Positions 13,804 through 55,208 of a stretch of 64,000 nt of DNA are shown here, piece by piece. The notes below the pieces were generated by a model. That model saw only the letters and a program-made list of their open reading frames with translations. It made no database searches and was not told the DNA's origin. The DNA comes from an uncultured Actinomycetes bacterium (GTDB lineage Bacteria > Actinomycetota > Thermoleophilia > Solirubrobacterales > 70-9), in contig OY969703.1 of assembly GCA_963702075.1 (NCBI GenBank), positions 2,528,203 through 2,592,202 of the forward strand, in the 5' to 3' direction. The first letter of the stretch is position 1. Every line of letters begins with the position of its first letter. A program made the position numbers and the translations under genes.

Positions 13804-13806
13804 GCG

Positions 13807-14052: not shown

Positions 14053-14062
14053 GCTTTGAGCT

Positions 14063-16540: not shown

Positions 16541-16738
16541 ATGGCGGTGGAAATCGGCGCAACCGGTGGCTTTGGCGAGAGCGTGTCCCTTTCCGGGGAG
16601 GACGCTGCGCGCTTCGTAAATGAGGTCGCTCATCCGTCTACCGACGAGCGGCGCCTGTCGCATCTAGAGCGCTCGGACAGGGCTTACGAGCACCTGTTTT
16701 CTCCCGAGCCAATCAGCGAACTCCCTCCCTCGAAGTAG
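16541..16738 (+). CDS. putative antitoxin fragment (resembles only the toxin-binding C-terminal part of DUF1778/TacA antitoxins)
   Basis: 65 aa lying 3 nt upstream of the GNAT ORF. The segment SLSGEDAARFVNEVAHPSTDERRLSHLERS resembles the C-terminal region of TacA-type antitoxins. No N-terminal RHH is recognisable. Confidence 0.35.
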   Translation: MAVEIGATGGFGESVSLSGEDAARFVNEVAHPSTDERRLSHLERSDRAYEHLFSPEPISELPPSK

Positions 16739-16741
16739 TCC

Positions 16742-22568: not shown

Positions 22569-22639
22569 CCACAGCCCGCTGGGGCGAAAATCCGATGCGG
22601 GGCTTGAACGCAGGTCAGGAGGCGTAACCTTGTGACGTC

Positions 22640-25600: not shown

Positions 25601-25705
25601 CTGGAGACCGGCGCCGAGACGCTGATGATCGACATAACCGCCGAACGAGAGGCGCTGGAGGGCGGAGGTGGGCCGCTGGGAGTTCGTACCCGCGGCGCCT
25701 ACTAG
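22640..25705 (+). CDS. class III adenylate/guanylate cyclase fused to a STAND-type AAA ATPase and TPR-like helical repeats
   Basis: 1021 aa. The cyclase core is VTVLFADVSGSMDL...FTGDGIMAIFGAPVAHEDHAPRA. A P-loop (AEPGIGKSRL) and a long helical C-terminus follow. No LuxR-type HTH is visible at the end. Confidence 0.85.
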   Translation: MNDPLKDDAERKQVTVLFADVSGSMDLAEQEDPEEWRKIMQRFFSLLADSVNRFEGTVDKFTGDGIMAIFGAPVAHEDHAPRACYAALQMLDEVAGYAAELRRERGLNFSTRIGINSGEVVAGAIGGGEGSYTAIGHTVGLAQRMEALAEPGKAYLTEHTAELARGFLDLPDLGEFEIKGASRPVRVFELAGVGQARGRLDLARERGFSRFVGREREMVALEEALARAQSGKATALGVVAEPGIGKSRLYHEFAERCRSEGTEVFQAQGQAHGKSIPFMPILQMLRAFFGIGDNDAEQLAREKIAGRALLLDATFADDLPLLFDFLGVPDPERPVPQMSPEARQRALADVLCKLVGNPTRKKTLMLVFEDLHWIDEGSQTMLQGLIEGFADTRTLVLANYRPEYAPPWNENPCWQALELAPLRQEDTRELLRDLAGGDPSLDGLDEPIHERTGGNPFFIEEIVRELAESGYLEGERGAYRLAKPIEGAGVPVTVQAVLGARIDRLAGDAKRLLQVASVLGKEVSGEALGSTAGLEEEALMERALRELIDGGFLFEAEMYPQRLLAFRHPLTREVAYGTQLAEQRAATHAKAAQSLIALNPPDRWDELSALIADHLRQGGERLEAARWSARAAYWAGHSRPRDSLRLWHDVMELTDGLEEDEEVAALAIHSRLQQLTYAFRVGMGREEQERLAAEAEEIATRREDLHSLALLRVATAVRPGLDHFAETWLAAVRESVELADRAGDPHLRVAIRCAGGFAFLMTGDFDGFEAALDEVLELVGDDGSIGANIILGSPVAWGLMGKGMVRRERVEFDAAEELFERALRIALEEDDPETASWVRSNQAGLLAMRGESEAGLAIAMRNVELTEKLGDVFSRSLALSNLSWVQLNSGDAEGSLESIEESERLYRELMDEGGEMAAWRAHLRSQALREVGRAEEAVEAAEWAAETSRSRGLLWTYPAAMLALTRALTATGRPGALEALAEAERVALETGAETLMIDITAEREALEGGGGPLGVRTRGAY

Positions 25706-34050: not shown

Positions 34051-35004
34051 ATGACACGGACGGGAGCACGTGCATTGACGGTGCTGGCTGCGCCACTCCA
34101 CGTGCACATCCTCAAGGCGCTCGAGGAGGGACCCAAGGGGCTCCTCGATCTCCATCGCGCGGTTGGCTCGCCACCCCAGAGCACGATGCGCGTCTACACG
34201 CGAACACTCGAGGAGTTGGGGGTGCTCGAAAGGCGGCGCCAGAACGAATTTCCGGCGACCGCCGAGTATTCGATAACCCCGGCGGGAGAATCTCTGCTGG
34301 AGGTCGCGGGCCTCTTGCAGGAGTGGCTGTTGACTGCGCCAAACGGGCCGATCCTGCTCGGGAGCATGGCAGCCAAGAGCGGAGTCAAGGCGTTGGTCGG
34401 TGGTTGGTCCTCCCACATCGTCCGGGCCGTCGCGGCACGGGCCCTCTCGCTGACCGAACTCAACGTATTGATCCCCAAGATCAGCTACCCGAGCCTCGAG
34501 CGCAAGCTCAGCGCGATGAGAAGCGCGAGCCTGGTCGAACCGCAGCCCGGCAGCGGTCGCGGCACCCCATGCGGACCCACGGTCTGGCTGCGCCAGGCGA
34601 TGATTCCTCTCGCCTCCGCCTCGGCGTGGGAGCGGAAGTTCGCCTCCGAGTCGGCAACCCCTATAGGCCGCCTCGATGTCGAGGCGGCACTCCTGCTGTC
34701 TCTCCCGCTGATCGAGCTTGACCCCGGGCACAGCGGTCGCTGTCGGCTGTCGGTCGAGATACGGGGAGGCTCCTCCCCCGCCATGGCTGGAGCAATCGTG
34801 GCAATCGAGGAAGGCAAGGTCGTCTCCTGCACCTCTCGCCTGGATGGCGACGTCCAGGCGTCTGCCTCGGGCAGCGCCCTTGCCTGGATGCGCCAAATGA
34901 ACGGCGGACCCTCGGGCCAGCTCGAGATGGGCGGCGACCTGTCTCTTTCGATGGCGGTCACCAATGCGCTGAGGGAACTTCGAGGCGCTTTGTCCCCGAA
35001 TTGA
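34051..35004 (+). CDS. transcriptional regulator with two HxlR-type winged-helix domains plus an SCP2-like C-terminal domain
   Basis: 317 aa. The first wHTH is HILKALEEGPKGLLDLHRAVGSPPQSTMRVYTRTLEELGVLERR...EYSITPAG. The second, degenerate copy is at about aa 120-200. The C-terminus ...LEMGGDLSLSMAV is SCP2-like. Confidence 0.5.
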   Translation: MTRTGARALTVLAAPLHVHILKALEEGPKGLLDLHRAVGSPPQSTMRVYTRTLEELGVLERRRQNEFPATAEYSITPAGESLLEVAGLLQEWLLTAPNGPILLGSMAAKSGVKALVGGWSSHIVRAVAARALSLTELNVLIPKISYPSLERKLSAMRSASLVEPQPGSGRGTPCGPTVWLRQAMIPLASASAWERKFASESATPIGRLDVEAALLLSLPLIELDPGHSGRCRLSVEIRGGSSPAMAGAIVAIEEGKVVSCTSRLDGDVQASASGSALAWMRQMNGGPSGQLEMGGDLSLSMAVTNALRELRGALSPN

Positions 35005-35259
35005 CGCCTTCGCGAATCGAAACGCGTCGGCGCGCAGAAATCTGCTCTTTGCAGGGAGATCACACTCCCTGCCATGCACCTCGACGGTCGACCCAGCTGA
35101 CTTCACCTGAAGATTTGGAAGCCCACGCCCAATCGGGTCTGATGGATCTCGAGGTACTTCCTACGACATAGAGGTGCTTCATTATTTCTCCTGAGAGGGC
35201 GGCGCCGACGAAGTGCCGCCCTCTATTTGTTCAGCGGACTAGGGACTAGAGTCCTCGGC

Positions 35260-35769
35260 ATGCGTTCCGGTGGAACGGTGCGGTGCGTGGATCCCCGGGC
35301 CTCACGCGGTCCGGTCTACCGCTGGTTCGCCCGTTTCTCGGCCTCGCGCTTCGGCTTCTGGCTGTCGCGCAACATCAGCTGGAAAGTCGACCCCTACCTG
35401 CTTCGCATGACCGGGGGACGGATCGGAACCGGGCTGATCATCCCCACCGGGCTACTGGAAACGCGCGGGGCACGGTCGGGGCAGCTTCGACGCAACGGGG
35501 TCATCTACTTTCACGATGGCGAGAAGGTGACGATCGTCGCCTCCAAGGCCGGTGCCCCCGAGCACCCCGCCTGGTTCCACAACGCCCGCGCCCACCCCGA
35601 CGTCCGCTTCGGGGGCCAGCCGTTCCGCGCCGAGGTGGTCGAAGACGATGGTGAGCGGACTCGGATCTGGGGGCTCGCCGACCAGGTGTTCCCGCCCTTC
35701 GCCGACTATCGCGAGCGCGCCGGGCGCAGCGGTCGCACGATCCCGATCCTGCAGCTGGTCCCTCGCTGA
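35260..35769 (+). CDS. deazaflavin (F420)-dependent nitroreductase family protein (DDN/DUF385)
   Basis: GLLETRGARSGQLRRNGVIYFHDGEKVTIVASKAGAPEHPAWFHNARAHPDV...IPILQLVPR is a DDN signature. A TTG at 35227 is an alternative start. Confidence 0.8.
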   Translation: MRSGGTVRCVDPRASRGPVYRWFARFSASRFGFWLSRNISWKVDPYLLRMTGGRIGTGLIIPTGLLETRGARSGQLRRNGVIYFHDGEKVTIVASKAGAPEHPAWFHNARAHPDVRFGGQPFRAEVVEDDGERTRIWGLADQVFPPFADYRERAGRSGRTIPILQLVPR

Positions 35770-35782: not shown

Positions 35783-36511
35783 TCAGCGGCGGGGGCCGGT
35801 GTTGCAGCCGTGGTCCCTGCCCCAGCCGCGTTGGCCGTTGCAGTAGTCGAAGCCGGGGCCCCCGTAGAGCTGATCGGCGGCGCGGCCGCCGTAGAGACGG
35901 TCGTTACCGGCGCCGCCATGGCAGCCGTCCTGGCCCGGGCCCATGATGCAGATGTCGCGGCCGGGGCCGCCCCAGCAGCCGTCGCTGCCGGCGCCGTGGT
36001 GGCAGAAATCGTTGCCGCGGCCGCCGACGCAGTCGCTGTTGCGGTTGCCGGTGATGCAGACGTCGTTGTTGCCCCCGCCGATGCAGCGGTTGCGGCGAGA
36101 GCCTTCGGAGAAGCAGATGTCCCGCTCGCCTTTGCCGACGAACTTGTCCGAGCCGCGGCCGAGGTGGACGACCAGGGGCAGGGGCAGGGTCCTCGTCACC
36201 TTGACCATGTCGCCCTTCGGCCCCATCTTGACTTCGATCGCACCGACGCCGCGAGTCGAGCAGACGGCCTTGCGGTGGCCGCGGGTGAAGTGGCAGCCGC
36301 GTGGGTGGTGGTGGGCCATGTTGCCCTTGACCACGAGCTTGTTGTGGCCGCGCGGGTGCAGCCTCAGCGTCGACCCCTTGTGGGAGCCGAAGATGACGAT
36401 TTTGGAGACAGACGTGGCGGCGGACGGAAGTGCCAGGAGGGCCACTACCGCGACCAAGCCGACCAGCAGCCTGCGGCCAGGGGGCAAACGCATCGGGCGC
36501 ATATTAATCAT
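35783..36511 (-). CDS. secreted protein with Cys-substituted RTX-like (GGxGxDxCx) calcium-binding repeats
   Basis: 242 aa. The signal peptide is LLVGLVAVVALLALPSAATS. Six repeats read GNNDVCITG / NRNSDCVGG / RGNDFCHHG / AGSDGCWGG / PGRDICIMG / PGQDGCHGG. Canonical GAGNDRLYGGRAADQLYGG follows. Confidence 0.6.
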   Translation of the reverse strand: MINMRPMRLPPGRRLLVGLVAVVALLALPSAATSVSKIVIFGSHKGSTLRLHPRGHNKLVVKGNMAHHHPRGCHFTRGHRKAVCSTRGVGAIEVKMGPKGDMVKVTRTLPLPLVVHLGRGSDKFVGKGERDICFSEGSRRNRCIGGGNNDVCITGNRNSDCVGGRGNDFCHHGAGSDGCWGGPGRDICIMGPGQDGCHGGAGNDRLYGGRAADQLYGGPGFDYCNGQRGWGRDHGCNTGPRR

Positions 36512-36605
36512 GTGTATCGGCTAACAAAACGGAGACCTGAAGATCACACGCCGAATTTCCCGCATTTGGAGCAGAAAGATGATCTATTGCCCGGACGCAG
36601 CGAGG

Positions 36606-36642
36606 GCGAGGGGGCACCGAAGCGCTGCTGGCGCCCCCTCGC
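36606..36642 (-). terminator. GC-rich hairpin (10-bp stem, no U-tract) 23 nt downstream of the 1224-aa gene stop; possible I-shaped terminator
   Basis: GCGAGGGGGC (36606-36615) is complementary to GCCCCCTCGC (36633-36642). Confidence 0.3.
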
Positions 36643-36664
36643 GAGGCAGGCTTTTCTGGCTCCC

Positions 36665-39600
36665 CTAGCGGCTCTTCTTAGAGCGCTTGCCGCCGCAGCG
36701 AGCCTTCAGCGGCGGGTTGAACACATGCCGCTTGCCGTTTTGCCCGGTAAAGCTGGCCTTCGCACGGTGGTTGCCTCGACAGATGTTGGTGCTGTTGACG
36801 AGCAGGCCCTTCTTGCCGCCCTGCATTTCGAGGACGAACTTGGTCACCGGGGCGTCGGGAACCGCTTCGAAGGAGTTGCGGATCCCTCCGTCGACCGAGT
36901 CGATCCGACCGACGAGGTCGATGTCCACCTTCGCCGAGTGCAGCGCGGCTACGAGGTCGGGTAGCGGATGATTGGACGAGCGCAGGTAGACGCGCCCGAC
37001 CAGCGGTTCGTCGAGTAGAGGAGATACCGCTCTCGCGCGGCCATAGATGGACCGCTTGGGGCACTGACTGCCGTTGCCGTTGCCAGCCGCGAACTGGACC
37101 CGGGTGCAAATCGTGCCGATGTGCCCCTGTTCCAGGAACTCGGAGTGGGGAAGTTTGACTACGGCTGCCCCGATGTTGGCGTCGCCTTTGCGGGCGGTGA
37201 GAACGGCTTTGAGCGCCGGATTGGCTCCGCGCCTGGTCCCGCCCTTGAGGGTCAGCGCCAGCTTCGGCTTGAAGCCGAGACGGGCACAGTCGGCGGCCTG
37301 GAAGGGCGAGGTGACGTCAACTGGCGAAAGGCCGGAAACAGAAGCCGAAGCGGTCATCCGTTCACAGCTGGTCGGATTGAGGACGAAGTCCTTGCGGTCG
37401 ACGTAGATCCGGATGTCCCGCGCGTGGACGACGATCCCCTGCAGGATGTGCGGGATCGGGTCTCCGCTCGAGCCGTCGGTCGAGACTTCGGCCGTGTTCG
37501 GATCGACCTTCAGCCCTTGGCGGATGACGACGTTGCCGAGGTCGAAAGGACCGACCTTGGCCGTCGTGATCGCCACGACCGACAGCTTGGTCCCTTTATA
37601 CGGGCCGGCGAGATAGACCTTGCCCGGGGCGTAGGTCAAGGTCGGCCCCACTCCGGCACCCACCAGGGTCCGCCCGATCTGCGAGGCATCCGGGCAGCTC
37701 GGGTGTTCGAGCTCTTCCTGACCGCCGTTCGGCCCCGTCCTCGTGCGGGCCGCGGCAATCGCCGCATCCGAGCAGAACGGAATGCCGGACAGATTCCCGA
37801 TCACGCCCTTCGGCAGCTTCAGGGAGAAGGTCGTGAATTCCTGTTCCCCGTCCTGTCGCGTCAGTCGCACGTCCAGCGGCGAGTATTTACCGGCAGCGTT
37901 GTTCTCCGTCCCGGCGGTGAAGCCCGGCTTGAACGGCGGCGTCCCGCTCGGGCAAGCACTCCCGTTGGGCCCATGATCGACCGTGAACGAACTCGTCCTG
38001 GTGACGATCTCGTTTGGCTGTGGGTTGTTCGGATCCGCAGCGTTCCAAGGCGTGAACTTCGCCGTGATGTCGTACTTGCCGCACGTCGCCGGCATGACCA
38101 GCGGCGCCCGATCGCCTTCTTTGAAGTGCAGGTTGAAGGTGCTGAATGGGATCTGCGGCAGGTTGTCGAAGGTGGAAACCAACTGCCCCGTAGCCGGGTT
38201 CAGCTCCACCTTGCCAGCTTGTTTGACCAGGATTCCGCGGTCGGGAATCTTCGCCACCACATAGAGGGCGAGCAACGACCCGAAGGGGTTGTCATAAGGC
38301 GCGGCCACGTAGACAGATCCGTGAGCTTCCTCTTCGAGCAGCGGCGTCGTGATGTCGACGTTCCCGATCTTCGAGGATTCAGGACAACCTTCACCGGGCG
38401 TCGAATCGAACCTCTCCCGCGCGTAATCCGTCGGCGTGCAGGCGTCCAACCCATTTGCCTGCGACGGATTCACCGTTATCCCTTCGGGCAGCGTCACTTC
38501 AACCTTCTTCGCCTGCCCTTCGGCGACCTTCGCGTTCGGGTCCAGCAGCCCAGAGTTTGGCATGTCAACGCGGAAATCAAGTCCGCTCGCCGTTCCGGCA
38601 TCTGGGTTGGTCGGAGACGCCGCGATGCTCGGATTGAAAGGCACTTGGTTGCAGCCGACCATGTTCGGCTGCGTCGAGTTCGCTTGCTGGACCACGGTTC
38701 CGAGCGGGACATTCCAGGGTTCGAGTTCGACTCGGAAGTCGAGAGGACTTGCGCAGGAGACCGGCTGGCGAAGGAAAGCGGTTTCACCGAGGCCATTCGG
38801 CCGCCCGCAGGTTCCCTGTGCCCGGAAGTACACGCAGTTCCAGCCCCTCGCGCTGTCATGACGGGAGTCCCCCGGCGAGCCCCAAAGGCTCACCGTGCTC
38901 GAGAGGAAGTTGGCGACCTGGGTCGCGTTGTTGACCAATGCGACGATGCGGTAGCCGTTGTCGGGATCAACAGCCGTATCGATGACCACCGGGGTCCCGA
39001 CTGCCATGAAGCCAAAGCGGGCCGGCTCTCCCTCGGCGGGCACAAGATTGAAAACCGGCACAGCAACGCGGAGCAGGCCGAAGGTCGCCGGTTCGATGAT
39101 GGTGACCGTAGTGACCCCGACGGCGGTGGCATCGGGACATTCGTTAGTCAGTTCTTCGGTCGTGGTGAGGAAGCTCACCATCGGGCATTTGGGAGTGGCG
39201 GTTGCGCTGCCCACAAAACCCGCCGGCAAGGAGAACCGCACGTTTCGGGGGAGCCCCGGCTGTTCGATGAAAGCGTCTCTGCGGTTGCCTCCGTTCAGGG
39301 CCGCCGTGTTGAGCTGGATGGTCGTCGTCAGCTGAAAAGGATGGGCTCCAGCCCGGGTCGTGGGAGCGCCGCCCTCTTCTTCTGATTGTGAGGAGGTCTG
39401 TTCGATGCCGAAGGGGGTGGGTTCCGGGCTGACTTTGACGACCTGGGGGACCGAGAGCGAGGGGGCATTTGCGCCTGAAACGGTGACAGTGCCCGGCGCC
39501 CCGGCGACCGGCGGTTCCCCAATCAGGTTGGCGAGGATTTCGACTTCGATCGCTTCATAGGAGGGGAGCGTCTTTTCGAAGGTGCAGGAGACTTCTACCG

Positions 39601-40339
39601 GCGATTCGACCGTGCAGTCCACTCCGCCGATCGTTCCCTGGGCACCGGCGAACGCTTCGACTCCAGCTGCTTCCACACCCTCCGGCAGGTGATCGACGAT
39701 GGTAACCGGAGTTTCCGTGGCATCAACCGGAGCATCGCCAAGGTTCGTCAGGGTCAGGACGAGCCGGCCGCTGCCACCGTTCTCCAGAATTTTGGCTTTC
39801 GCGCTCCCCAGATTTCCGAAAACTTCGTTTTCGACTGGCTTGACACTAATGACGGGCTCGGCATGCTTCGGAACCGTGATCACGAACGGGGCACCGCCGA
39901 CAGGCCCGCCCGTAACTTTGACAGCATTCGTGCCGAATGCGACTTCAAGAAGCGCCTTTAGTTGTGCCGCAGTTTCGGTAGGCGGAAAGCCGGTGTTGTT
40001 TTCGCAGAAGACTTCCCCGAAGAAGTTCGCGGTGCCGAGGCAGCCGATCAGTTTGCCCCCGACCCTGAGTTCGATCGCCGCGATCTGAGATCCGAAGAGT
40101 TCCTTGGTTCCGGTTTCGATTTCCTGGACGTTGTCGGTTGGCTCCCAGAGGTTCGTCGGCCGACTACCGGTCAGAACCTGCCACCAAGGTTGAGGCGCCG
40201 CGGAGGCTTGGGCAGGCAGCACCGCGAGGGCGCCGAAAGCGAGGATGACGAGGGTGAGCTGCCTGAGCCGTAGGAACATGGTCGAGAACTCCCTGGTTGC
40301 GGCACGATCGAGATCGGGGGTCTGCTGCACGCGCCTCAT
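36665..40339 (-). CDS. large secreted protein of unknown function: DUF11/CARDB-like N-terminal region plus four tandem copies of an unrecognised module of about 170-200 aa (Cys-x(14-25)-Cys-Pro)
   Basis: 1224 aa. The ATG at 40339 overlaps the upstream stop (ATGA); an alternative ATG is at 40279 (MFLRLRQLTLVILAFGALAVLPAQASA, a signal peptide). Coding periodicity is consistent throughout. The repeats are described in the findings. Confidence 0.8.
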   Translation of the reverse strand: MRRVQQTPDLDRAATREFSTMFLRLRQLTLVILAFGALAVLPAQASAAPQPWWQVLTGSRPTNLWEPTDNVQEIETGTKELFGSQIAAIELRVGGKLIGCLGTANFFGEVFCENNTGFPPTETAAQLKALLEVAFGTNAVKVTGGPVGGAPFVITVPKHAEPVISVKPVENEVFGNLGSAKAKILENGGSGRLVLTLTNLGDAPVDATETPVTIVDHLPEGVEAAGVEAFAGAQGTIGGVDCTVESPVEVSCTFEKTLPSYEAIEVEILANLIGEPPVAGAPGTVTVSGANAPSLSVPQVVKVSPEPTPFGIEQTSSQSEEEGGAPTTRAGAHPFQLTTTIQLNTAALNGGNRRDAFIEQPGLPRNVRFSLPAGFVGSATATPKCPMVSFLTTTEELTNECPDATAVGVTTVTIIEPATFGLLRVAVPVFNLVPAEGEPARFGFMAVGTPVVIDTAVDPDNGYRIVALVNNATQVANFLSSTVSLWGSPGDSRHDSARGWNCVYFRAQGTCGRPNGLGETAFLRQPVSCASPLDFRVELEPWNVPLGTVVQQANSTQPNMVGCNQVPFNPSIAASPTNPDAGTASGLDFRVDMPNSGLLDPNAKVAEGQAKKVEVTLPEGITVNPSQANGLDACTPTDYARERFDSTPGEGCPESSKIGNVDITTPLLEEEAHGSVYVAAPYDNPFGSLLALYVVAKIPDRGILVKQAGKVELNPATGQLVSTFDNLPQIPFSTFNLHFKEGDRAPLVMPATCGKYDITAKFTPWNAADPNNPQPNEIVTRTSSFTVDHGPNGSACPSGTPPFKPGFTAGTENNAAGKYSPLDVRLTRQDGEQEFTTFSLKLPKGVIGNLSGIPFCSDAAIAAARTRTGPNGGQEELEHPSCPDASQIGRTLVGAGVGPTLTYAPGKVYLAGPYKGTKLSVVAITTAKVGPFDLGNVVIRQGLKVDPNTAEVSTDGSSGDPIPHILQGIVVHARDIRIYVDRKDFVLNPTSCERMTASASVSGLSPVDVTSPFQAADCARLGFKPKLALTLKGGTRRGANPALKAVLTARKGDANIGAAVVKLPHSEFLEQGHIGTICTRVQFAAGNGNGSQCPKRSIYGRARAVSPLLDEPLVGRVYLRSSNHPLPDLVAALHSAKVDIDLVGRIDSVDGGIRNSFEAVPDAPVTKFVLEMQGGKKGLLVNSTNICRGNHRAKASFTGQNGKRHVFNPPLKARCGGKRSKKSR

Positions 40340-43300
40340 CGCGAGGCCTTTCGGCCGTGGCCGGCTTTCCTGTGCTGGTGCTTGTGCTTGACGCAGCGAG
40401 ACTTGCCGTGACGGCGCACCTTCCGCTCGCCCTTTCGGCAGTGAACCTTTGCCGCCCCGACATTGCCTGGCCCAGAGAAGACCGAGCTCGACGGCGTGGG
40501 GTCATTCGGCGGCGTGCCATGTGCCTGGCATGCTTCGCCGAGGCATTCGACGCGAGGAGTGAGGCTCCCGGGACTGCCGTTAACGCGGGCATCGTAGACA
40601 TCCAGCTCCGAGTCTTCATCGACAGGATTGAGCCTCGCCGGCGTCATGAAGAACACGTCGTCGCCGCTTTCGCTGGCATCGAGGAATCCGGCTTCGCTTT
40701 TCCCGGTGCCCGAGGAGAGCAGCGACACGCAGCCGCCGGCACTCCTCGCGGTAGCCGCATCGCCGGAGGCCTGGCTGCAACTGCCCAGGACCGCGGGCTC
40801 GTACTGGTAGACATCCCATCCGCCGTTCGCGTCGGCTGGCACCAGCGAATCCGCAGCGTTGAAGAAAACGCGACCATTGTCGAGCACGGCCCGGGGGGAG
40901 TAGAGCGATATCTCGCTCAAGACATCGGAGACCGTGGGCTCGGGCAGAACGGCCTCGATCTGGTCCCCTTCCCACTGGCGGCGTGGATCCACCAGCTTGA
41001 TCACCCCCGCCAGTTCTCCTTCGGGAGCGGCGCCACTCGGCTTACAGGAGATACAGGCCAATTGGTCGACGTTTGCGTCGTAGCGATAGACCCGCTGGAC
41101 TGGTTCGCCGGTTTTGGAATCAAGGTTGTCGTTGCCGGCGAGAGGGCGCTCGGAGGCGAAGGCAAAGAAGCGGCCGCTGGGCGATGCGGCGGCACTCAGG
41201 CGTGAGGCGATCCCCTGCGAAGTACCCCAGTCATGTTCGTCTTCTTTGGAGAGAGTTCCTATGTAACGTACGCCCTCGCCCTTGCGCCAGACGTAGAGGT
41301 TTGGCTTTTCGGGGGCGGCGGTTTCACCCTCTTGGTTGGGGGCAGGGTCCAGAACCCCAAGAGCAACGAAGTAGACCGTCAAACCGTCATCGCCGACGCC
41401 GGGCGCAAGGCCCTGGACTTCGGCGCTTTCTCCGGAGAGCCCGGCGGGAACACTGATGTCGACGAGGCTGCTGCAACCAGATGCGACCGAGCCAGCCGGG
41501 ATCTCACACCGATAGAGGTCGCGTCCGCTCGGGCTGGCGTCGCCCGTCAGCTGCTGGGAATCGGTGAAGAAGACCGCGGTTCCATCCGTGCTCGCCCCCT
41601 GAAAGATCGGTTCTGACGCACCCGAACCGCCTCCCCCAAGGGGTACGTCGATCCGAACCGTTTCCTCGGCCACCGTGTCGCGCAGGTAGAGCGCGGTGAA
41701 GTTGTGAGCGCTCCAAAAGATGCGCGACCCGTCGCTCGAGATCGCGTTGTCAACCGTGTGGCCGGTCGAGATTTGATGGCCTCCCGAGCCGAGGGTTTCG
41801 GTATCCGCGAGCCCACCACCTTCCGTCGAGGGCAGAACGCTAATCGGCCGCAGCCCTCCCGCGCTCCATAGGTAGAGGCTGTTGAACGGCGGCGGCGGCG
41901 CCCCCTCGACAAGCGGCACCTGAGCATTCAGGACCACGTGCGCCATATCGGGCGTTGCCCCTGCGATGTTTACGGGGCCGAGCGGGTTTCGTGGATCGCC
42001 ACCGAATTCCGTACCGCCGGGAACGTTCCCTGCGGTGATCAGCGGCGTGAAGACAGGCGGGTCCGTGCTCTGCCGGAGATACGGGGTTCTTTCAGTCGCC
42101 TGGGAAGAAAGCCCCACGGTGGTGCGCGGTTCGACCAAACCCGCAGACAGGTCGCGGCCGAAGAGCTTGTATTCGCTCAGCGAGCCAACTGGAATCTGGG
42201 TGACGCTGCCATTGGGAAGGGTGATGTCCTTGGAACTCCACCCCGTTGCGGCCCGGCGAGCAAAGACCGTCGAAGCTTCAGCCGTTCGGTTCCCCGCCGG
42301 CTCTGGTTCGATCGACCCGCGGCTGGCGTAGACGATGCTTTCCCCGTTCGCGGCAGCCTGAACATGGGCATTTTGCGAGCCCTGGAGCACCGCGCCATGC
42401 TTATTCGGAGGCGACACGATCTCCCAGGCTCGCGAGTCGCTCAGCTGAAAACCGAGCGAACTGGTCTCGGTTCTGAACGTGTGGTTGGATTCCAGGGCCA
42501 GATTGCTTCCTTCTGAGTTTTCCGCGAGAACCCGGTAGTGGTAGACCGTGTTGGGGGCGAGGCCGGTTAGAGCCTGGGACACGCGGACACCCTTGTCGCC
42601 GCTGCCAATATCCACGGCAGTGGCAGGAACTGAGGTGCAGGGGTCGAGCGAGCAGTCTTCGAGCCCATATTGGAACACGTAGGTCGTCTCGTGAGAGCCG
42701 GGATTGATTTCAGCAGTCAACGTCGCCGAGTCGCCGCTGACTTCGGTGACGGAAATATGTTCGACCCGAGGCGGTCCCTCATATTTTTCTCTGGGCTTGA
42801 AGATCTCGACCCGGGAGGGCTCGCCGGTCACCGTGTTGGCGACGAAGATAGCCGTGTTTTCACCGTCGATTCCAACTCCTTGGGCAAATTCGACTTCACC
42901 TTCCTCGCCCACTCCTGCAAAGGTCGCCAGCAGGTTTCCCGCTTCGTCATACCATGCGATCTTGGGATCGGACACCTTCTGGGCAACGTAGACGTCATTC
43001 GTTGCTGGATCGACCCCCACCGCATAGGCAGCTGTCGCATCGACAGGTTCCGAGGCGGCAGTGTACGTCGTTAGAGGCGTAACCGGATACACCGAAGGGG
43101 TGAACTTAAGGACGGGTGCTCCGGCGGCATTTCCAAGATTGAGAAACAGGTCGCCATTCATGTCGACAGCGCCGTTGGCAGGATGGGGAGTGGAAAACAC
43201 CGTGATCTGTTCACCGGTTGAGGCAAAGATCGTCACCGTTTCGGCGAGAGTGTCGATTGCGTAGATATCGCCATTCGCGTCCACGGCCACGCCCGTGAGT

Positions 43301-43767
43301 TTGGCGAAGCCAGTAAGTCGATCAGTACCGGCGTCGGAACCGGCCGTGAACTCGGCCGGTTCCCCGTCCGGTTGGAAGACACGCAGGGAATTGGCGTCGG
43401 TGACGTAGAACTCATGGGTGGTCGAGTTGACAGCCACTTGACTCTCACCCGATCCCGCAGAGAGACCTAGACCGCCGATCACGTTCCCCGAGATGTAGCC
43501 AGCGGACCCTCCAAAGTTCGCCGGTTCTCCTCCCGAGTCGAATCTCAGCAGCGAGCCGTTGCCGCGATCGAGAACGTAGACCCAGTGTTCTTGCTGATCA
43601 ACTGAAATCGATCCCGCTTCTACGAAACTGCCTGGACCTATCCCGTCAGGTCCAAAGCTGCCGCTGAATTCGGGTGATTCGGCCGCAGAAGCCGACCCCG
43701 TGACGCTGAGGACGATCAATAGGCAACCAATCAACAGTGCCCCGCCGCTAAAGAGGCGTGCTCGCAT
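40336..43767 (-). CDS. large secreted protein: NHL-type beta-propeller, FN3-like domain, TolB/PD40-like beta-propeller and a basic Cys-containing tail
   Basis: 1143 aa from the ATG at 43767, which has GGAAGGGG 7 nt upstream. The signal peptide is MRARLFSGGALLIGCLLIVLSVTGSASA. NHL-like blades include YVLDRGNGSLLRFD, FYVTDANSLRVFQPDGE and IYAIDTLAETVTIF. The FN3-like part is LTAEINPGSHETTYVFQYG...NTVYHYRVLAENSEGS. PD40-like repeats include SSDGSRIFWSA, STDGTAVFFTD and DNGRVFFNAAD...WDVYQYE. Confidence 0.8.
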   Translation of the reverse strand: MRARLFSGGALLIGCLLIVLSVTGSASAAESPEFSGSFGPDGIGPGSFVEAGSISVDQQEHWVYVLDRGNGSLLRFDSGGEPANFGGSAGYISGNVIGGLGLSAGSGESQVAVNSTTHEFYVTDANSLRVFQPDGEPAEFTAGSDAGTDRLTGFAKLTGVAVDANGDIYAIDTLAETVTIFASTGEQITVFSTPHPANGAVDMNGDLFLNLGNAAGAPVLKFTPSVYPVTPLTTYTAASEPVDATAAYAVGVDPATNDVYVAQKVSDPKIAWYDEAGNLLATFAGVGEEGEVEFAQGVGIDGENTAIFVANTVTGEPSRVEIFKPREKYEGPPRVEHISVTEVSGDSATLTAEINPGSHETTYVFQYGLEDCSLDPCTSVPATAVDIGSGDKGVRVSQALTGLAPNTVYHYRVLAENSEGSNLALESNHTFRTETSSLGFQLSDSRAWEIVSPPNKHGAVLQGSQNAHVQAAANGESIVYASRGSIEPEPAGNRTAEASTVFARRAATGWSSKDITLPNGSVTQIPVGSLSEYKLFGRDLSAGLVEPRTTVGLSSQATERTPYLRQSTDPPVFTPLITAGNVPGGTEFGGDPRNPLGPVNIAGATPDMAHVVLNAQVPLVEGAPPPPFNSLYLWSAGGLRPISVLPSTEGGGLADTETLGSGGHQISTGHTVDNAISSDGSRIFWSAHNFTALYLRDTVAEETVRIDVPLGGGGSGASEPIFQGASTDGTAVFFTDSQQLTGDASPSGRDLYRCEIPAGSVASGCSSLVDISVPAGLSGESAEVQGLAPGVGDDGLTVYFVALGVLDPAPNQEGETAAPEKPNLYVWRKGEGVRYIGTLSKEDEHDWGTSQGIASRLSAAASPSGRFFAFASERPLAGNDNLDSKTGEPVQRVYRYDANVDQLACISCKPSGAAPEGELAGVIKLVDPRRQWEGDQIEAVLPEPTVSDVLSEISLYSPRAVLDNGRVFFNAADSLVPADANGGWDVYQYEPAVLGSCSQASGDAATARSAGGCVSLLSSGTGKSEAGFLDASESGDDVFFMTPARLNPVDEDSELDVYDARVNGSPGSLTPRVECLGEACQAHGTPPNDPTPSSSVFSGPGNVGAAKVHCRKGERKVRRHGKSRCVKHKHQHRKAGHGRKASR

Positions 43768-44096
43768 GAACTGTTCCCCTTCCTTCGCCGGTGTAACCGA
43801 CCGATACGCCCCGCGACTCGCGTCCCCGAGCCGGTTCCCCCCCTTGAGGGATGAGCTGAGCTGATTCCCACTCAGAAACCTAACGACTCCGGAGCAAACG
43901 GGGAAACTTTGTAGCCCAGACAAAAGTTCTGTCCTTGGCAGCGGGCTCAAAAGTTCCTGGAATTATCACTACAGCAAATATTCGCACGTGCATCCCTGAG
44001 CCCTCGACAGCTCCTCTTTTCATGTCTCTAAATGGGGTGGGGTGGGACCTATGCGGCCCCGCCCCTTCAATCCGTACTTCCTTGCTTGATATCGGT

Positions 44097-44792
44097 CTAG
44101 CATGTGAACGTCATATTCTGAGCGAAAGTCAACGTCCTTTCGCCATCCTGGGAAGCCGTCGTAGCTGCGCCTCCGTTCTGGCTCGAGGTGAGAGCGAATT
44201 TCGTGCCGGTTGTTGTGACCTGAGTCCACTTCTGTGTGCCGGTCGCCGGCGATTCGTACTTCACCGTCGCGGTTTTCTGTACTGCGCCGCACGTGGTCGG
44301 CGCGGTCATTTCACCGATGATGCCGTTGCCGTTGATGACCTCGCTCACCAAACCTCCCCCGCAGATGAACGAGGCAAAGTGCCCGGCGTTCGGTGTGAGC
44401 AAGATGCCGCGGACCTCGGGTGGCCCTTTCTCGAGGATGACGTTGTGCCCGATCAGATCTGTCGTTTTGATCGAGCCAGAGGCCTGGCCGGTGGACGTGC
44501 ATTTGCTGCCGAAGAGGTTCTCCGTGCAGTTGCTGAACGTCAGTGTGACTTCTGACGATGTCGTGGCCGTGGTTTGCTGGCCGGCGCCGGCGACAGAGGT
44601 ACAGGTCATTTTCAGGCTCGAACCGTCGGCTGTTACGGGGACCGTGTTCCCGATACTGGCCAGATTGAACGCAACCGGGAAGCTACCGTTCGCCGGATCG
44701 AGGCTCCATTCTCCGGCCGTAGCCAGGGCCGGCAGGACGAACATCGCTGCGCTGATCGCTGAGAGGGCGAGCAGGAGGATCTTCTTGCTCAT
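44097..44792 (-). CDS. secreted six-Cys protein, GEW family, tandem copy 1
   Basis: 231 aa. The signal peptide is MSKKILLLALSAISAAMFVLPALATA, followed by GEWSLDP. It has six Cys and ends ...MTFTC. It is about 90% identical to copy 2. Confidence 0.8.
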   Translation of the reverse strand: MSKKILLLALSAISAAMFVLPALATAGEWSLDPANGSFPVAFNLASIGNTVPVTADGSSLKMTCTSVAGAGQQTTATTSSEVTLTFSNCTENLFGSKCTSTGQASGSIKTTDLIGHNVILEKGPPEVRGILLTPNAGHFASFICGGGLVSEVINGNGIIGEMTAPTTCGAVQKTATVKYESPATGTQKWTQVTTTGTKFALTSSQNGGAATTASQDGERTLTFAQNMTFTC

Positions 44793-45069
44793 GTTTGCCT
44801 TTCACGTCTGGTCTCGGCAGGAGATCTGCGATCTGTTTGCCGGACTATTGTGTGCGGGTCGGCCGCTCTTTCGTCTGCCAACCCACCTTTCCCCCACATC
44901 TCTAGCCGCACACGGCTAAGAGCACAAAGATATCTGAGTTTTTTAGCGCAGTCACGTGATCACCTAGCGGAATGTCCCCGCACTCCCCAGAACAACGGGA
45001 CATCACCCTCGCAAAGGCACGCCTAATTGAGTTCTGCATGAACCTGACTCCTATTGGTGAGCGGAACCA

Positions 45070-45100
45070 CAAAAAGGCCGGGGGACAACTGGCCCCCGGC
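45070..45100 (-). terminator. rho-independent terminator after GEW copy 2
   Basis: The minus-strand RNA reads GCCGGGGG-CCAGUUGU-CCCCCGGC followed by CUUUUUG. It lies 30 nt downstream of the stop at 45130. Confidence 0.7.
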
Positions 45101-45129
45101 TCATTATTCAGTGCTAGATCGTCAACTTC

Positions 45130-45822
45130 CTAGCATGTAAACGTCATGTTTTCGGCGAACGTCACAGTCCCTTCGCCGTCCTGGGAAGCCGTCGTAGCTG
45201 CGCCTCCGTTCTGGCTCGAGGTGAGAGCGAATTTCGTGCCGGTTGTTGTGACCTGAGTCCACTTCTGTGTGCCGGTCGCCGGCGATTCGTACTTCACCGT
45301 CGCGGTTTTCTGTACTGCGCCGCACGTGGTCGGCGCGGTCATTTCACCGATGATGCCGTTGCCGTTGACGACAACGGCAACGAGTCCCCCGCCGCAGGAG
45401 AACGAAGCAAAGTGCCCGGCGTTCGGTGTGAGCAAGATGCCGCGGACCTCGGGCGGCCCTTTCTCGAGGATGACGTTGTGCCCGATCAGATCTGTCGTTT
45501 TGATCGAGCCAGAGGCCTGGCCGGTGGACGTGCATTTGCTGCCGAAGAGGTTCTCCGTGCAGCCGCTGAACGTCAGTGTGACGTTGCTCGATGTCGTGGC
45601 CGAGGTCTGTGAGCCGTTACCGGCGGCACTGGTGCAGGTCACTTTCAGGCTCGAACCGTCGGTTGTCAGGGTCGTGTTCCCGATACTGGCCAGATTGAAC
45701 GCAACCGGGAAGCTACCGCTCGCCGGATCGAGGCTCCATTCCCCGGCCGACGCAACCGCCGGCAGGGCGAACATCGCTGCGCTGATCGCCGAGAGGGCGA
45801 GCAGGATGATCTTCTTGCTCAT
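45130..45822 (-). CDS. secreted six-Cys protein, GEW family, tandem copy 2
   Basis: 230 aa. The signal peptide is MSKKIILLALSAISAAMFALPAVASA, followed by GEWSLDP. The Cys scaffold matches copy 1. Confidence 0.8.
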   Translation of the reverse strand: MSKKIILLALSAISAAMFALPAVASAGEWSLDPASGSFPVAFNLASIGNTTLTTDGSSLKVTCTSAAGNGSQTSATTSSNVTLTFSGCTENLFGSKCTSTGQASGSIKTTDLIGHNVILEKGPPEVRGILLTPNAGHFASFSCGGGLVAVVVNGNGIIGEMTAPTTCGAVQKTATVKYESPATGTQKWTQVTTTGTKFALTSSQNGGAATTASQDGEGTVTFAENMTFTC

Positions 45823-46082
45823 GCTTTACCTTTCGATTCAGGTCTCGGCAGGATGGTCTGGAACCTGTTCTTGCCGGACCAGTTGTGCGGGGTCGGCGGA
45901 CGCTTCCGTCGACCCGCTCTTTCCTCTACATCCCTAGCCGAGACGCAACTAATGGATCAAGGCATCCTGTTCATTCAGGGATATCCGTTGGTTCGGGCCT
46001 ACGCACTACCCCTGCAAATAGGCCAAAACCAATCTTTAGCTTTCGCAGAACTGTGCCCTCAAGTTAGGTCGGCGCTGGCGGA

Positions 46083-46538
46083 TCAGAGGATCCGAGGGCA
46101 GGTTTTCAAGCCGTAAGCCTTTGCTTCGCGCTCGAACTGAGGGACGCTTGACTGGAGCGCCTTTTTAGGTTCTTCTTCCATCATCTGGCTCGCGTGAGAC
46201 AGCGTGCTGACCATGTGGGCTACTTCGGCTCGATCCTTTTCGGGGGCCATAAGGGTTTCCAGTTGTTCCGCCTGGCCCTTCAGCGCTGGCGCGATTACTT
46301 CACGAAAACCGTCTTCAAGCTTGCTTTCAGCTTCAGCGGGGCCGCCGGGTAATTCCTTCCTCCAGGCATCGGCCGCGGCTTCCCGCTCCTGGGTTGCCTT
46401 CGTACAGATCGCGTCGGCTTGCTTGATGAACTGTGCCTTGGTGAGAGGCGCCGACGTTGCTTCGTCTCCCGAGCTTCCGCAGCCAGCTGCCATGCAAACC
46501 GCTGCTACCACTCCTATAACCATGATCAGCCTGTACAT
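46083..46538 (-). CDS. lipoprotein of unknown function
   Basis: 151 aa, with GGGAGGAG upstream. MYRLIMVIGVVAAVCMAAGCGSSGDE is a lipobox-like signal. The mature part is helical and charged. Confidence 0.65.
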   Translation of the reverse strand: MYRLIMVIGVVAAVCMAAGCGSSGDEATSAPLTKAQFIKQADAICTKATQEREAAADAWRKELPGGPAEAESKLEDGFREVIAPALKGQAEQLETLMAPEKDRAEVAHMVSTLSHASQMMEEEPKKALQSSVPQFEREAKAYGLKTCPRIL

Positions 46539-46653: not shown

Positions 46654-47160
46654 TTAGACGTGCGCGGCGGTCAGAGCGGCTGAGATCTGCTTTGCCCAGT
46701 CGCGGATCTCGGCCCAGTCGCGGCGGTCGCGGAACTCGCGTGGGATCCCCTCGACCATCGCCCTCTCCATGAAGCCGTGCGGCTCCGCCGGCAGGCAGCC
46801 GCCGAAGACGACGTGCTCCCTGCCGCCCAGCTCCTCGACCTTGTCGGTGATCTCCGGCGGCTCGGTCCACTCGGGGTTGTCCTTGGAGGGGTCGCCTACG
46901 GGGCCGGAGCTGAAGACCCAGAGCGGCAGTTGCCGCAGGCCCTTGCGGTGCTTCTTGAGGAAGTGGCGGGCGTCGCCGCGCCAGCGCTTCATGTAGACGG
47001 CGCTCCCTAGGACGACTGCGTCGTAGGGGTCGAGGCTTTGGACGTCTTCGGCTCGCTCGAGGCAGACTCCCAGCCCCTCTCGCCGCAGGGTCGCGGCGAT
47101 CGTCTCGGCGATCTCCGCGGTGGAGCCGCGTTTGGAGCTGTAGGCGACGAGGATTGTCAT
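46654..47160 (-). CDS. flavodoxin-like protein (flavodoxin_5 / HemG-like family)
   Basis: MTILVAYSSKRGSTAEIAETIAATL...YDAVVLGSAVYMKRW is flavodoxin-like. The start is set to the ATG at 47160. Confidence 0.7.
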   Translation of the reverse strand: MTILVAYSSKRGSTAEIAETIAATLRREGLGVCLERAEDVQSLDPYDAVVLGSAVYMKRWRGDARHFLKKHRKGLRQLPLWVFSSGPVGDPSKDNPEWTEPPEITDKVEELGGREHVVFGGCLPAEPHGFMERAMVEGIPREFRDRRDWAEIRDWAKQISAALTAAHV

Positions 47161-47284
47161 CGCTCCCGATTGTGCCTTACTGGACAGGGTGTCGCATCGT
47201 GCATTCGCCACAGAAGGCACGGCGGTTGTCCCGGGTGACGTGAACCGCGCTACGTTGGGGCCTCACCAACGCAAGGAGGCGCGG

Positions 47285-53550: not shown

Positions 53551-54342
53551 CTACTTCTGGACCCTGCAGGTGCGGATCAAGGTCGAGGAAAGCTTGCGCC
53601 CGTCGGCGAAGGTCATCGAGACCTTGGAGAAGGGGAAGGTCGCGCTGGTGAACCCGGCCGGGGCTGAGCAAGCGGCGCTCAGGTAGCTGTGCTTCTGCCC
53701 CCGGTAGACGAAGGTTCGCCGCAGCTCGAGGCTGATCTTCTTCAGGTAGCCCGAGCGATTGAGGCGGGCGGGCAGGGCGGCGCTGAGGGTCGTCCCGAAG
53801 GCGCCCACGTGCGCTTGATGGATGTGGAAGACGATGATGCGGCTGTTCGGCACCGGGTCGCCGCCATAGACGTGGGCGAGAATCGCCCGCTGGCCGTCGA
53901 TCACGGCATTGAAGGCGAGGACGCGCCCCTGCAAGGGGAAGCGGTCCTGTTCGGGCAACGCGAGGGCACCGAGGTAGCGGCCTTCGCCGACCAGGGCCGG
54001 CCGGCACGCTTCCAGCGCCTGCTGCGAGGTGGCCGGTTCGATCTGCGAGCGGCGGCAGGTCGGCAGGCCGCGGGTGTCGATGACGCCGCCACGGTTGATC
54101 GCGATCGAGATGTGGCGTAGCGCCGGCGGCCGTTCGCCCGAGAGGACCCTGACCGTGCCGTCGACCCGAACCGCGATCGGCGCCCGCTCAACTCGCGGCA
54201 GCGCCGTCGGGGCGATGCCGCCGTCGAACTTGACGAAGAGGTTCCCCCGCTCGACCAGCTCGGCTCGTGCGATCGACGCGACGAGGAGGCCCGCGATCAT
54301 GAGGCTGGTGAGCACGACAACCTTCTTTCCCCTCCGCTGCAT
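53551..54342 (-). CDS. secreted protein consisting of one copy of the Cys-x16-Cys module found four times in the 1224-aa protein
   Basis: 263 aa. The signal/TM segment is VVVLTSLMIAGLLVASIARA. LPTCRRSQIEPATSQQALEACRPALVGEGRY...PLQGRVLAFN aligns by eye with IGTICTRVQFAAGNGNGSQCPKRSIYGRAR...PLVGRVYLRS of module 4. The stop is 6 nt before the glpK start. Confidence 0.7.
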   Translation of the reverse strand: MQRRGKKVVVLTSLMIAGLLVASIARAELVERGNLFVKFDGGIAPTALPRVERAPIAVRVDGTVRVLSGERPPALRHISIAINRGGVIDTRGLPTCRRSQIEPATSQQALEACRPALVGEGRYLGALALPEQDRFPLQGRVLAFNAVIDGQRAILAHVYGGDPVPNSRIIVFHIHQAHVGAFGTTLSAALPARLNRSGYLKKISLELRRTFVYRGQKHSYLSAACSAPAGFTSATFPFSKVSMTFADGRKLSSTLIRTCRVQK

Positions 54343-54533: not shown

Positions 54534-55208
54534 ATGAAAAGGCTATTAGTACTCTCAATTACTGCGCTCGCCACCACCATCCTAATTCTCCCAGCGGTAG
54601 CGTTTGCAGGAGAGTGGGAAATGGATCCTGCAGGATGGGCCTTTGCGGTCAACGGCGTCGGCAATACCGTCTTGACAGCGGGCAATAATGGAACAGTTAC
54701 CTGCACCGCTGAGCAAGGCATAGGCGCGTACAACGCAGGATCAAAGACGACCGGCACTATCGAGCTGACGCTGAACGGATGCAAGGAGTCGGTCTTCGGC
54801 GCCAACTGCAATTCGGCGGGTCAGCCCGCTGGCTCGATCACAACTACAAAAATGACGTTTACAAACACCTACCTCACCGACAATAAGACGACACCCGGGA
54901 TCACAATTCGAGGCACGGGATCCGAAGAGCACTATGCGACTTTCAGTTGCGCCGGTGGGCTGGTGCAGGTTGTAGTCAGGGGAACAGTCTTAGGCGACTC
55001 CGAGCTCGAATGTAATACCGAAACCAAAGAACATAAGTTTGTGTTTGAATCGGTTGCCCACGGCGTTCAGAAGTACATGCAGGTAACAGGGACAGGGTCG
55101 ACCGAGGATCTGACCGTGACGATGAATGGTGGCGCCGCCGTGACAGCGTCTATCGATTCCACAACAATCTTGAAATCCAACGAAGCTGGCAAAATTACAT
55201 GCGTGTAA
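54534..55208 (+). CDS. secreted six-Cys protein, GEW family, divergent third member
   Basis: 224 aa from the ATG at 54534. The signal peptide is MKRLLVLSITALATTILILPAVAFA, followed by GEWEMDP. Shared blocks with 44097/45130 are LTLNGCKESVFGANCNSAGQPAGSITTT, ATFSCAGGLV, QKYMQVTGTGS, NGGAAVTASID and a terminal ITCV. Codon usage is visibly AT-richer. Confidence 0.75.
   Translation: MKRLLVLSITALATTILILPAVAFAGEWEMDPAGWAFAVNGVGNTVLTAGNNGTVTCTAEQGIGAYNAGSKTTGTIELTLNGCKESVFGANCNSAGQPAGSITTTKMTFTNTYLTDNKTTPGITIRGTGSEEHYATFSCAGGLVQVVVRGTVLGDSELECNTETKEHKFVFESVAHGVQKYMQVTGTGSTEDLTVTMNGGAAVTASIDSTTILKSNEAGKITCV

Follow-up and report, generated by a model that had tools for sequence, protein, structure and literature searches.

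A conserved pair of exported propeller and multi-module proteins as the core of a putative sortase-independent surface complex in Solirubrobacterales

A block of six co-oriented genes on the minus strand (positions 35783-46538) stands out in a 64,000-nt stretch of contig OY969703.1, from an uncultured bacterium of the Solirubrobacterales; this whole stretch is called the window below, its positions are used throughout and the letters A to F, c2 and D3 name its genes. What could such a run of exported proteins, with no enzyme among them, build together outside the cell? A first-pass annotation had proposed a dedicated extracellular assembly, not a metabolic function. Comparison with related loci upholds this view of an exported, non-enzymatic and co-inherited set and moves its centre: judged from sequence, the unit is the pair formed by genes C and B and not the six-gene block, which is incomplete. 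The block belongs to a lineage-specific set of proteins with a C-B core, conserved, exported by Sec, rich in disulfides and devoid of catalytic features. The explanation favoured here, with a probability of about 0.5, is that these proteins may form a sortase-independent, electrostatically wall-bound complex at the cell surface, devoted to adhesion or ligand capture.

The six minus-strand open reading frames first described could all be found again at their positions. From the downstream end, A (35783-36511) codes for an exported Cys-substituted RTX protein of 242 residues, B (36665-40279, or to 40339 with an upstream ATG) for an exported four-module protein of 1204 (or 1224) residues, and C (40336-43767) for an exported propeller protein of 1143 residues. 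D (44097-44792) encodes an exported six-Cys protein of 231 residues with a GEW motif, E (45130-45822) its 230-residue paralog and F (46083-46538) a helical lipoprotein of 151 residues. Two more genes were found outside the block, 7-8 kb from it, by searching the window with the recurrent neighbours of B: c2 (53551-54342, minus strand), which encodes a basic exported protein of 263 residues with four Cys, and D3 (54534-55208, plus strand), which encodes a third D-family paralog of 224 residues.

All six block products begin with a hydrophobic signal region; it holds an AxA-type site or, in the case of F, a conserved lipobox, in agreement with the earlier claim that each has a signal peptide or a lipobox; no further transmembrane-like segment was detected in them past this region. 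The Cys counts of the mature proteins are all even (12 in A, 22 in B, 12 in C, 6 in D, 6 in E and 2 in F, its lipid-modified Cys excluded), the pattern expected for disulfide-bonded exported proteins. No Pfam, NCBIfam, PHROG or PADLOC match to an enzyme, transporter, sortase or secretion ATPase was obtained for the six proteins, as had been anticipated. The absence of any PHROG or PADLOC match at E ≤ 0.01 for the eight proteins, c2 and D3 included, also led to the rejection of a phage or defence origin.

The main evidence about the functional unit comes from gene order, compared in 82 fetched loci holding 91 B genes and completed by a scan of species-representative genomes. For about 90 of these 91 B genes, the gene immediately upstream on the same strand is a C homolog. 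Tandem C-B-C-B arrays are frequent (for example in loci L078, L081, L075 and L039) and natural C-B fusion proteins exist (P0195, P0295, P0253 and P0197). This invariant adjacency, together with the arrays and fusions, argues that C and B act together. The family is also a large one. At least 583 B copies were found in the genome scan; among the 80 that were kept, almost all come from metagenome-assembled genomes (MAGs) of Solirubrobacterales, several of which hold multiple copies. A word-index search gave 841 matches to B, and an exhaustive search gave about 7,500 clusters at 50% identity, with 2,722 at E ≤ 1e-30. These relatives are labelled 'hypothetical' in every named source. Giant proteins of 3,400-7,200 residues contain 8-16 stretches resembling the module region of B (P0150, P0151, P0154, P0160 and P0196), the best stretches falling within about residues 467-1173; one of these giants comes from an Actinomycetota MAG.

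Could the block nevertheless be a chance run of unrelated exported proteins, gathered in a GC-poor island (GC, guanine plus cytosine)? Its composition is indeed distinctive, the block as a whole being poorer in GC than its flanks. The three long intergenic spacers (43768-44096, 44793-45129 and 45823-46082), already noticed as AT-richer, have a GC content of 0.55-0.56 versus 0.67 for the window, and the GC content at third codon positions (GC3) is 0.63-0.79 in the coding regions of B to F versus 0.87-0.96 in the flanking enzymes. The positions of A, F and the gene for an HxlR-family protein also shift between genomes. Against these points stand the near-universal C-B adjacency, the existence of fusions, and the recurrence of the F-D-C-B order, with c2 at 6-7 kb, even where B is only ~50-65% identical, which is more than chance. 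Related genomes moreover carry the cluster at the identical chromosomal position, so that the low GC3 is no sign of recent insertion and the cluster looks inherited. Synteny had been set beforehand as a test, and gene order recurs in dozens of genomes: a chance assembly is thus largely refuted and hardly credible.

The domain organization of C could be partly deciphered by profile comparisons. Its signal peptide is followed by a six-bladed NHL propeller, an FN3-like domain, a PD40/TolB-like propeller region, a Cys-rich segment and a polybasic tail of 40 residues. The earlier description of C as an NHL/FN3/PD40 protein is borne out for the first of these domains. Pfam NHL (PF01436, clan Beta_propeller) scores 22.1 bits for a cut-off of 20, NCBIfam scyF_NHL matches at 8.7e-13, and the C-family profile aligns residues ~45-305 with six-bladed NHL propellers of the PDB at E-values of 5e-37 to 1e-20. 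Matches of this profile include Pizza/TRIM NHL (5e-37), the PknD sensor (1rwi, 3.5e-26) and the teneurin NHL domain (1e-11); the Pizza designs were derived from PknD. On such profile evidence, the N-terminal domain of C is firmly confirmed as a true NHL propeller homolog of the PknD sensor. The two other assignments stay below the Pfam cut-offs. Residues 333-433 score 17.1 bits for fn3 (cut-off 25) and 27.4 bits for Pur_ac_phosph_N (cut-off 30), positions 405-433 of the family profile align with a titin chain (8q6t_I, 4.6e-10), PD40 scores 13.9 bits for a cut-off of 20.9, and S-x-DG-x-x-hydrophobic-F motifs recur in the C-family consensus. These sub-threshold matches and repeated motifs are weak indications of FN3-like and PD40-like regions.

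B comprises a signal peptide, an N-terminal region of ~260 residues, four homologous modules and a short polybasic tail. The four modules proposed at first reading, each of 210-250 residues, were recovered as homologous by profile-profile comparison (probability 77-99%, E 2e-5 to 2e-20), and each of them conserves a Cys...CP-x-x-S-x-IG disulfide motif. No match to B was found in Pfam or NCBIfam, nor in the PDB with either the single sequence or the family profile. Across 195 aligned homologs, conservation reaches 93% or more at Gly, Pro and Trp positions, at eight Cys pairs and at a few scattered charged residues, among which no catalytic-looking set could be recognized. Structure prediction, which had been suggested as a check, gives an all-beta, multi-domain AlphaFold model (pLDDT 71, pTM 0.55). 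Its best Foldseek match in the PDB is the C123 stalk of antigen I/II (probability 0.99, E 6.5e-7), entries 3qe5, 6e3f and 7l0o being matched at probability 0.99 and E about 1e-6; further matches are to the thigh/calf legs of integrin alpha and to the macroglobulin domains of TEP1/alpha-2-macroglobulin, all these structures being arrays of immunoglobulin (Ig)-like sandwiches. B is thus modelled as a chain of Ig-like beta-sandwiches.

The way in which the two genes are expressed together deserves a comment. C and B are certainly adjacent, at most 56 nt apart, and they are probably co-transcribed. A translational coupling through an ATGA overlap at 40336-40339, with a B product of 1,224 residues, had also been proposed. 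The overlap is present in the sequence; the start at Met21 (position 40279) appears better supported, with an AGGGAG 9 nt upstream and a canonical signal peptide. An entry of 1204 residues (P0001, on a 2.74-Mb contig), 100% identical, has a start that agrees with Met21, and the 20-residue extension from the ATG at 40339 is not conserved in homologs. The coupling is therefore doubtful.

How would such proteins stay at the cell surface? Both the C and B families show a conserved Cys followed by a Lys/Arg/His-rich C-terminal tail, on an otherwise acidic body. The body and tail charges are about -76 and +15 for C, and -19 and +6 for B; the tails of the C family often finish with ...NRRAGR. Neither an LPXTG-like C-terminal motif nor a transmembrane-like segment was found in the eight proteins, no sortase appeared among the Pfam matches of the neighbours, and no protein matched a known wall-binding module (SLH or other) in Pfam or NCBIfam, which sets them apart from sortase-anchored adhesins and pili and from SLH-type S-layers. 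From the lack of a sortase signal and of a membrane span, combined with basic tails on acidic bodies, we infer a non-covalent wall tethering, in which the tails of C and B would be the wall-binding elements.

The recurrent neighbours of the pair, which all encode exported proteins or regulators, are c2 and c3 directly after B, a D-family or a collagen-like gene directly before C, and regulators of the TetR, PucR and HxlR families. No transporter, sortase or secretion gene was found among them across the 82 loci. c3 encodes an exported protein of ~360 residues with two repeats and a weak HtaA-like match (E 0.004); it comes next after c2 in 31 loci (L006, L009, L013, L014, L022, L027, L030, L033 and others), and no c3 homolog was found in the window. 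In the window, the gene for the HxlR-family protein (34051-35004, plus strand) is a candidate regulator of the cluster, its product bearing an unusual C-terminal extension of ~200 residues. HxlR homologs stand beside D-type clusters in L001-L004, L007, L009, L021, L023 and L045, some of which have different flanks, and three or four HxlR copies surround the cluster in L021 and L023.

This recurrence of regulators near the clusters is one of the arguments for another explanation, in which the proteins would be released as soluble binders that capture nutrients or signals, their expression being switched by the adjacent HxlR, TetR and PucR proteins. NHL and PD40 propellers often serve to bind ligands, with the PknD sensor as the closest actinobacterial NHL match to C, D weakly resembles small beta-barrels (see below), and the HtaA-like match of c3 in related loci points in the same direction. 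We consider this explanation unlikely, since no linked transporter or uptake system is seen in the 82 loci and since a rod-like stalk of ~120 kDa and polybasic tails look ill-suited to free diffusion. The giant multi-module relatives, which resemble adhesins, also speak against it.

The D family evolves fast. D and E, first noticed as two GEW six-Cys proteins, are indeed 90% identical paralogs with six conserved Cys; both have GEW as mature N-terminus and end in Cys. They are acidic, Thr-rich (17%) and Thr/Gly/Ser-rich overall. Their dN/dS ratio is 0.44, with differences concentrated at residues 51-88. D3 is 39-40% identical to D and E, with six Cys and GEWEMDP as mature N-terminus, and lies divergently from c2. 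Across orthologous loci, identities range over 38-64% for D and 34-70% for F versus 64-84% for B and 61-89% for A, and D thus diverges much faster than B. Starting from D, a single-protein genome scan returned four loci. The family has 126 detectable members, all single-domain and all 'hypothetical', and every member with an organism name comes from a Solirubrobacterales MAG. Its only detected relative is the double-domain c15 of paralogous clusters (hhalign probability 94%).

The predicted structure of D is well defined (pLDDT 83.5, pTM 0.81): an all-beta monomer with long strands, compact and complete, as obtained in the follow-up of the suggested structural check. No significant match to this fold was found in the PDB or among viral models, nor to the D sequence in the PDB, whether as a single sequence or as a profile. 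The best structural match is a small phage 'OMP beta-barrel' model (TM-score 0.44-0.55, E 0.27). No fold is thus assigned to D, whose model would represent a new all-beta fold with respect to these two sets. D, E and D3 do not belong to the type IV or Tad pilin class either: they have type I signal peptides (A-x-A before GEW) and are all-beta in the mature part. Two other relationships were tried and rejected: D as the head domain of collagen-like proteins, with which it shares a 'GEWSL' string (hhalign probability 0), and a kinship of c2, c3 or D with the B modules, including c2 as a free-standing B module (probability ≤5%).

The D-type genes have expression signals of their own. In many loci, D-family genes are preceded by a conserved TTGAC(T/C) box and, 17-19 nt further on, by a second box that begins with TA, then by a leader of ~100 nt and a strong Shine-Dalgarno sequence GAAAGGTAAAGC; besides the window, the first box, the leader and the Shine-Dalgarno sequence were seen in L001, L003-L006, L008-L011 and L038. 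Upstream of E (45823-45965, minus strand), the conserved box, there TTGA(T/C)C, the TA-initiated box, a two-hairpin leader and GAAAGGTAAAGC ATG follow one another; upstream of D (44793-44935, minus strand) lies a duplicated copy of this leader and Shine-Dalgarno sequence. An intrinsic-terminator-like hairpin (45077-45100, minus strand), made of 8 G-C pairs then CTTTTTGTGG, is located 30 nt past the stop codon of E. The two hairpins of the leader, GGGUCGRC...GYCGACCC then CCGGCRG...CUGCCGG, occur in every sequence folded, and their stems vary between loci yet stay paired, with z-scores of -2.2 to -3.1 for single-sequence folds. RNAalifold gave no usable consensus from a MAFFT alignment of the leaders, which was poor and does not allow covariation to be demonstrated. 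An Rfam scan of the 33-49 kb region returned no match. A sigma-70 consensus scan detected no promoter in the block; the boxes of D and E are reported because they are conserved across loci. D, E and D3 are probably each transcribed separately, from their own promoter with a structured leader. A layout of this kind is usual for abundant structural subunits that are transcribed on their own and have stable mRNAs, and D and E may, by analogy, be abundant.

Abundant subunits of this kind could also make up a coat, S-layer-like or sheath-like, in which D and E would be the lattice or fibre subunit and C, B, F, A and c2 minor anchors. In its favour, D and E are small, duplicated proteins of acidic, Thr/Gly/Ser-rich composition that evolve fast, their promoter-like boxes, structured leader, strong Shine-Dalgarno sequence and terminator after E recall the layout of S-layer and major-pilin genes, and a collagen-like fibre protein occupies the D position in paralogous clusters. 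We hold this coat to be rather unlikely. D-family genes are absent from most C-B loci, and from all 50 in which B is without its N-terminal region, so that D cannot be a general subunit. Six Cys per subunit are unusual for S-layer proteins, Pfam and NCBIfam gave no match to SLH or to another recognised S-layer anchor, and the D monomer model is compact and complete, with no sign of self-assembly.

D is linked to one subtype of B. Where B has its N-terminal region, a D-family gene is found upstream in 15 of 23 loci and a collagen-like gene in none of the 23; where B lacks this region, the figures are 0 of 50 for D-family genes and 21 of 50 for collagen-like genes. D-family genes, F, A and the HxlR-like regulator are all restricted to the B subtype carrying the N-terminal region. 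Although confounded by phylogeny, this co-occurrence suggests a joint action of the D proteins with the N-terminal region of B.

The collagen-like protein that replaces D upstream of C was observed in L014, L028-L032, L040, L043, L048, L050, L052 and L053, as well as in L055, L059, L064, L067, L068, L070-L074, L078 and L081. It has ~270 residues. Its hydrophobic N-terminal segment (…RFGIPGVISVIALVFAMLGGAYAA) is conserved, it carries 15-25 G-X-Y triplets, and its C-terminal domain is globular and ends with GTWAVTAP.

The accessory proteins F, c2 and A could complete the assembly. F has the lipobox MAAG|C, with the lipidated residue at Cys20, and the [AVGT]-G-C-G pattern is kept in all nine F homologs (9/9); these features make this small helical protein a bacterial lipoprotein. 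F and D are adjacent again in L001, L003, L005, L045, L083, L085 and L086. c2 is exported, strongly basic (isoelectric point, pI, 10.7) and has four Cys. It is 36-40% identical to the gene product encoded directly after B in 37 related loci, and its gene also lies 6-7 kb from the F-D-...-C-B block in L083, L085 and L086. The contig looked up for c2 itself is a fragment of 1.9 kb that offers no gene context.

A is basic as well (pI 9.7), has an N-terminal signal peptide and is linked to the D-type cluster, at a position that varies among genomes. Its description as a Cys-substituted RTX protein was fully corroborated: HemolysinCabind (RTX) scores 32 bits for a cut-off of 23, with eight nonapeptide matches between residues 118 and 236, and Cys occupies the buried position 7 of consecutive nonapeptides (7-8 repeats), recurring exactly every 9 residues between 143 and 197, in all homologs. 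Such periodic Cys at a buried position suggest a disulfide-laddered beta-roll, whose ladder would be akin to the disulfides inside the antifreeze beta-helix of Tenebrio.

This RTX-type protein, together with the multi-copy and variable nature of the clusters, recalls toxin loci, and the NHL propeller of C also matches teneurin NHL domains. An antagonistic function could thus be considered, with teneurin-like or polymorphic-toxin-like surface proteins directed at competitors or hosts. It appears very improbable: toxin, RHS/YD, immunity, type I and type VII secretion components were not found, A has an N-terminal Sec signal and not a C-terminal type I secretion signal, and B is highly conserved, with a C-terminus that is not polymorphic.

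In the wall-bound complex that we favour, C and B would associate outside the cell, C providing ligand-binding propeller heads (NHL and PD40-like) and B a rod of Ig-like beta-sandwich modules. Their tails would attach, through non-covalent contacts, to anionic polymers of the wall or to the acidic body of the other protein. D, E and D3 would be abundant, exposed and fast-evolving partner subunits docking on the N-terminal extension of B, F would act as a membrane-proximal lipid anchor, and the basic A and c2 would bridge acidic components. The complex would serve to adhere to an external ligand or surface, or to capture it, with no catalysis. Several observations weigh against this scheme. The system is known from genes alone, all homologs coming from uncultured MAGs. 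The structural matches of B are those of generic Ig-like arrays, with TM-scores of 0.09-0.29 from a model of pLDDT 71 and pTM 0.55, and the polybasic tails may have DNA, polyphosphate or soil minerals as their targets instead of the wall. The weak resemblance of D to small beta-barrels could mean ligand binding instead of a structural role, and phylogeny confounds the link between D and the N-terminal region of B. Finally, the HxlR, TetR and PucR regulators near the clusters suggest a conditional expression, not a constitutive one.

A more speculative proposal, which we regard as improbable at present, would make C-B and its interchangeable partners (D-family or collagen-like) an undescribed sortase-independent surface appendage of monoderm Actinomycetota, assembled after Sec export through disulfides and the electrostatics of the polybasic tails. 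Each small genome (~2.5-2.8 Mb) would keep several variant copies, by which these abundant soil bacteria could attach to different particles, hosts or prey.

As regards the genomic setting, the window is chromosomal DNA, with housekeeping genes such as MetH, acyl-CoA dehydrogenases, a carboxyltransferase, short-chain dehydrogenases and F420H2-dependent quinone reductases, and the nearest relatives of its proteins are all from Solirubrobacterales MAGs. The block is flanked by an F420H2 quinone reductase gene (35227-35769, plus strand) and a flavodoxin gene (46654-47220, minus strand). Other features of the window were noted in passing. A second GC-poor stretch (0.60-0.62) at 12000-17000 contains an open reading frame (15547-16473, plus strand) with weak IS1 and integrase-core matches and may be a mobile-element remnant. 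Two unusual fusions were also seen: a 1025-residue protein joining adenylate/guanylate cyclase, AAA_16 and TPR domains (22628-25705, plus strand), and a GT4 glycosyltransferase joined to a transmembrane domain of the lysyl-phosphatidylglycerol-synthase type (5271-7604, minus strand).

Why should this cluster matter? Solirubrobacterales are among the commonest soil Actinomycetota and almost entirely uncultured. A search of the literature on their surface structures returned nothing relevant. The cluster often occurs in multiple copies, each of 7-11 kb, in genomes of ~2.5-2.8 Mb. Unannotated families lie behind it, namely B with its ~7,500 clusters at 50% identity, D with its predicted new fold, and c2. 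The C-B pair offers a handle on how a cell surface may be built without sortase in this order, with three new domain families for the databases and a model of anchoring by polybasic tails that can be put to the test. Should the complex mediate attachment, it would be relevant to soil aggregation, to rhizosphere colonisation and to the biology of phage receptors. It is at present a well-delimited 'dark matter' system rather than the demonstration of a new mechanism: the kind of complex, exported and with a surface or adhesive role, is a known one, and its component families are undescribed and very numerous in Solirubrobacterales metagenome sequences.

Which known systems does it resemble? At the level of domains, membership could be assigned to the NHL-propeller, RTX-repeat and lipoprotein superfamilies only, B, D and c2 having no described family. 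The model of B best matches the C123 stalk of the streptococcal antigen I/II adhesins (SpaP, SspB, AspA, BspA); like these Gram-positive proteins, B is exported, and it is predicted to be made of tandem Ig-like sandwiches that would act as a rigid stalk. It differs in having no sequence similarity, LPXTG anchor, sortase partner, or A or P repeats, in stabilising each module by conserved Cys pairs, a role played by isopeptide bonds in antigen I/II, and in being always paired with a separate propeller protein. C shares its six NHL blades with the PknD sensor of M. tuberculosis (1rwi), TRIM and teneurin, and is extracellular and actinobacterial as PknD is; in contrast to PknD, it has no kinase or transmembrane segment, and its propeller is fused to FN3-like and PD40-like regions and to a polybasic tail. 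A propeller head on beta-sandwich legs, or an array of macroglobulin domains, also evokes integrin alpha and the complement/alpha-2-macroglobulin proteins. Here, however, head and leg are on separate polypeptides, C and B, rare fusions excepted, and no thioester motif is present; the resemblance is architectural only, no homology being demonstrable by sequence.

A has consecutive GxGxDxUx nonapeptides scoring above the HemolysinCabind cut-off, like the calcium-binding beta-roll proteins of the RTX type, from which it differs by its N-terminal Sec signal and by Cys at the buried hydrophobic position. It is not placed in the type I secretion class, ABC and MFP genes being absent among the scanned window genes and the recurrent neighbour families. 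The closest parallel for anchoring is with the basic-tailed proteins held non-covalently on Gram-positive cells, C and B having the same combination of an acidic body and a Lys/Arg/His-rich tail. The mycobacterial HBHA, for instance, binds polyanions through its Lys-rich tail; C and B are not homologous to it, and polyanion binding by their own tails is a prediction only. Taken together, these analogies suggest that the cluster would work most like the sortase-independent surface adhesins of Gram-positive bacteria.

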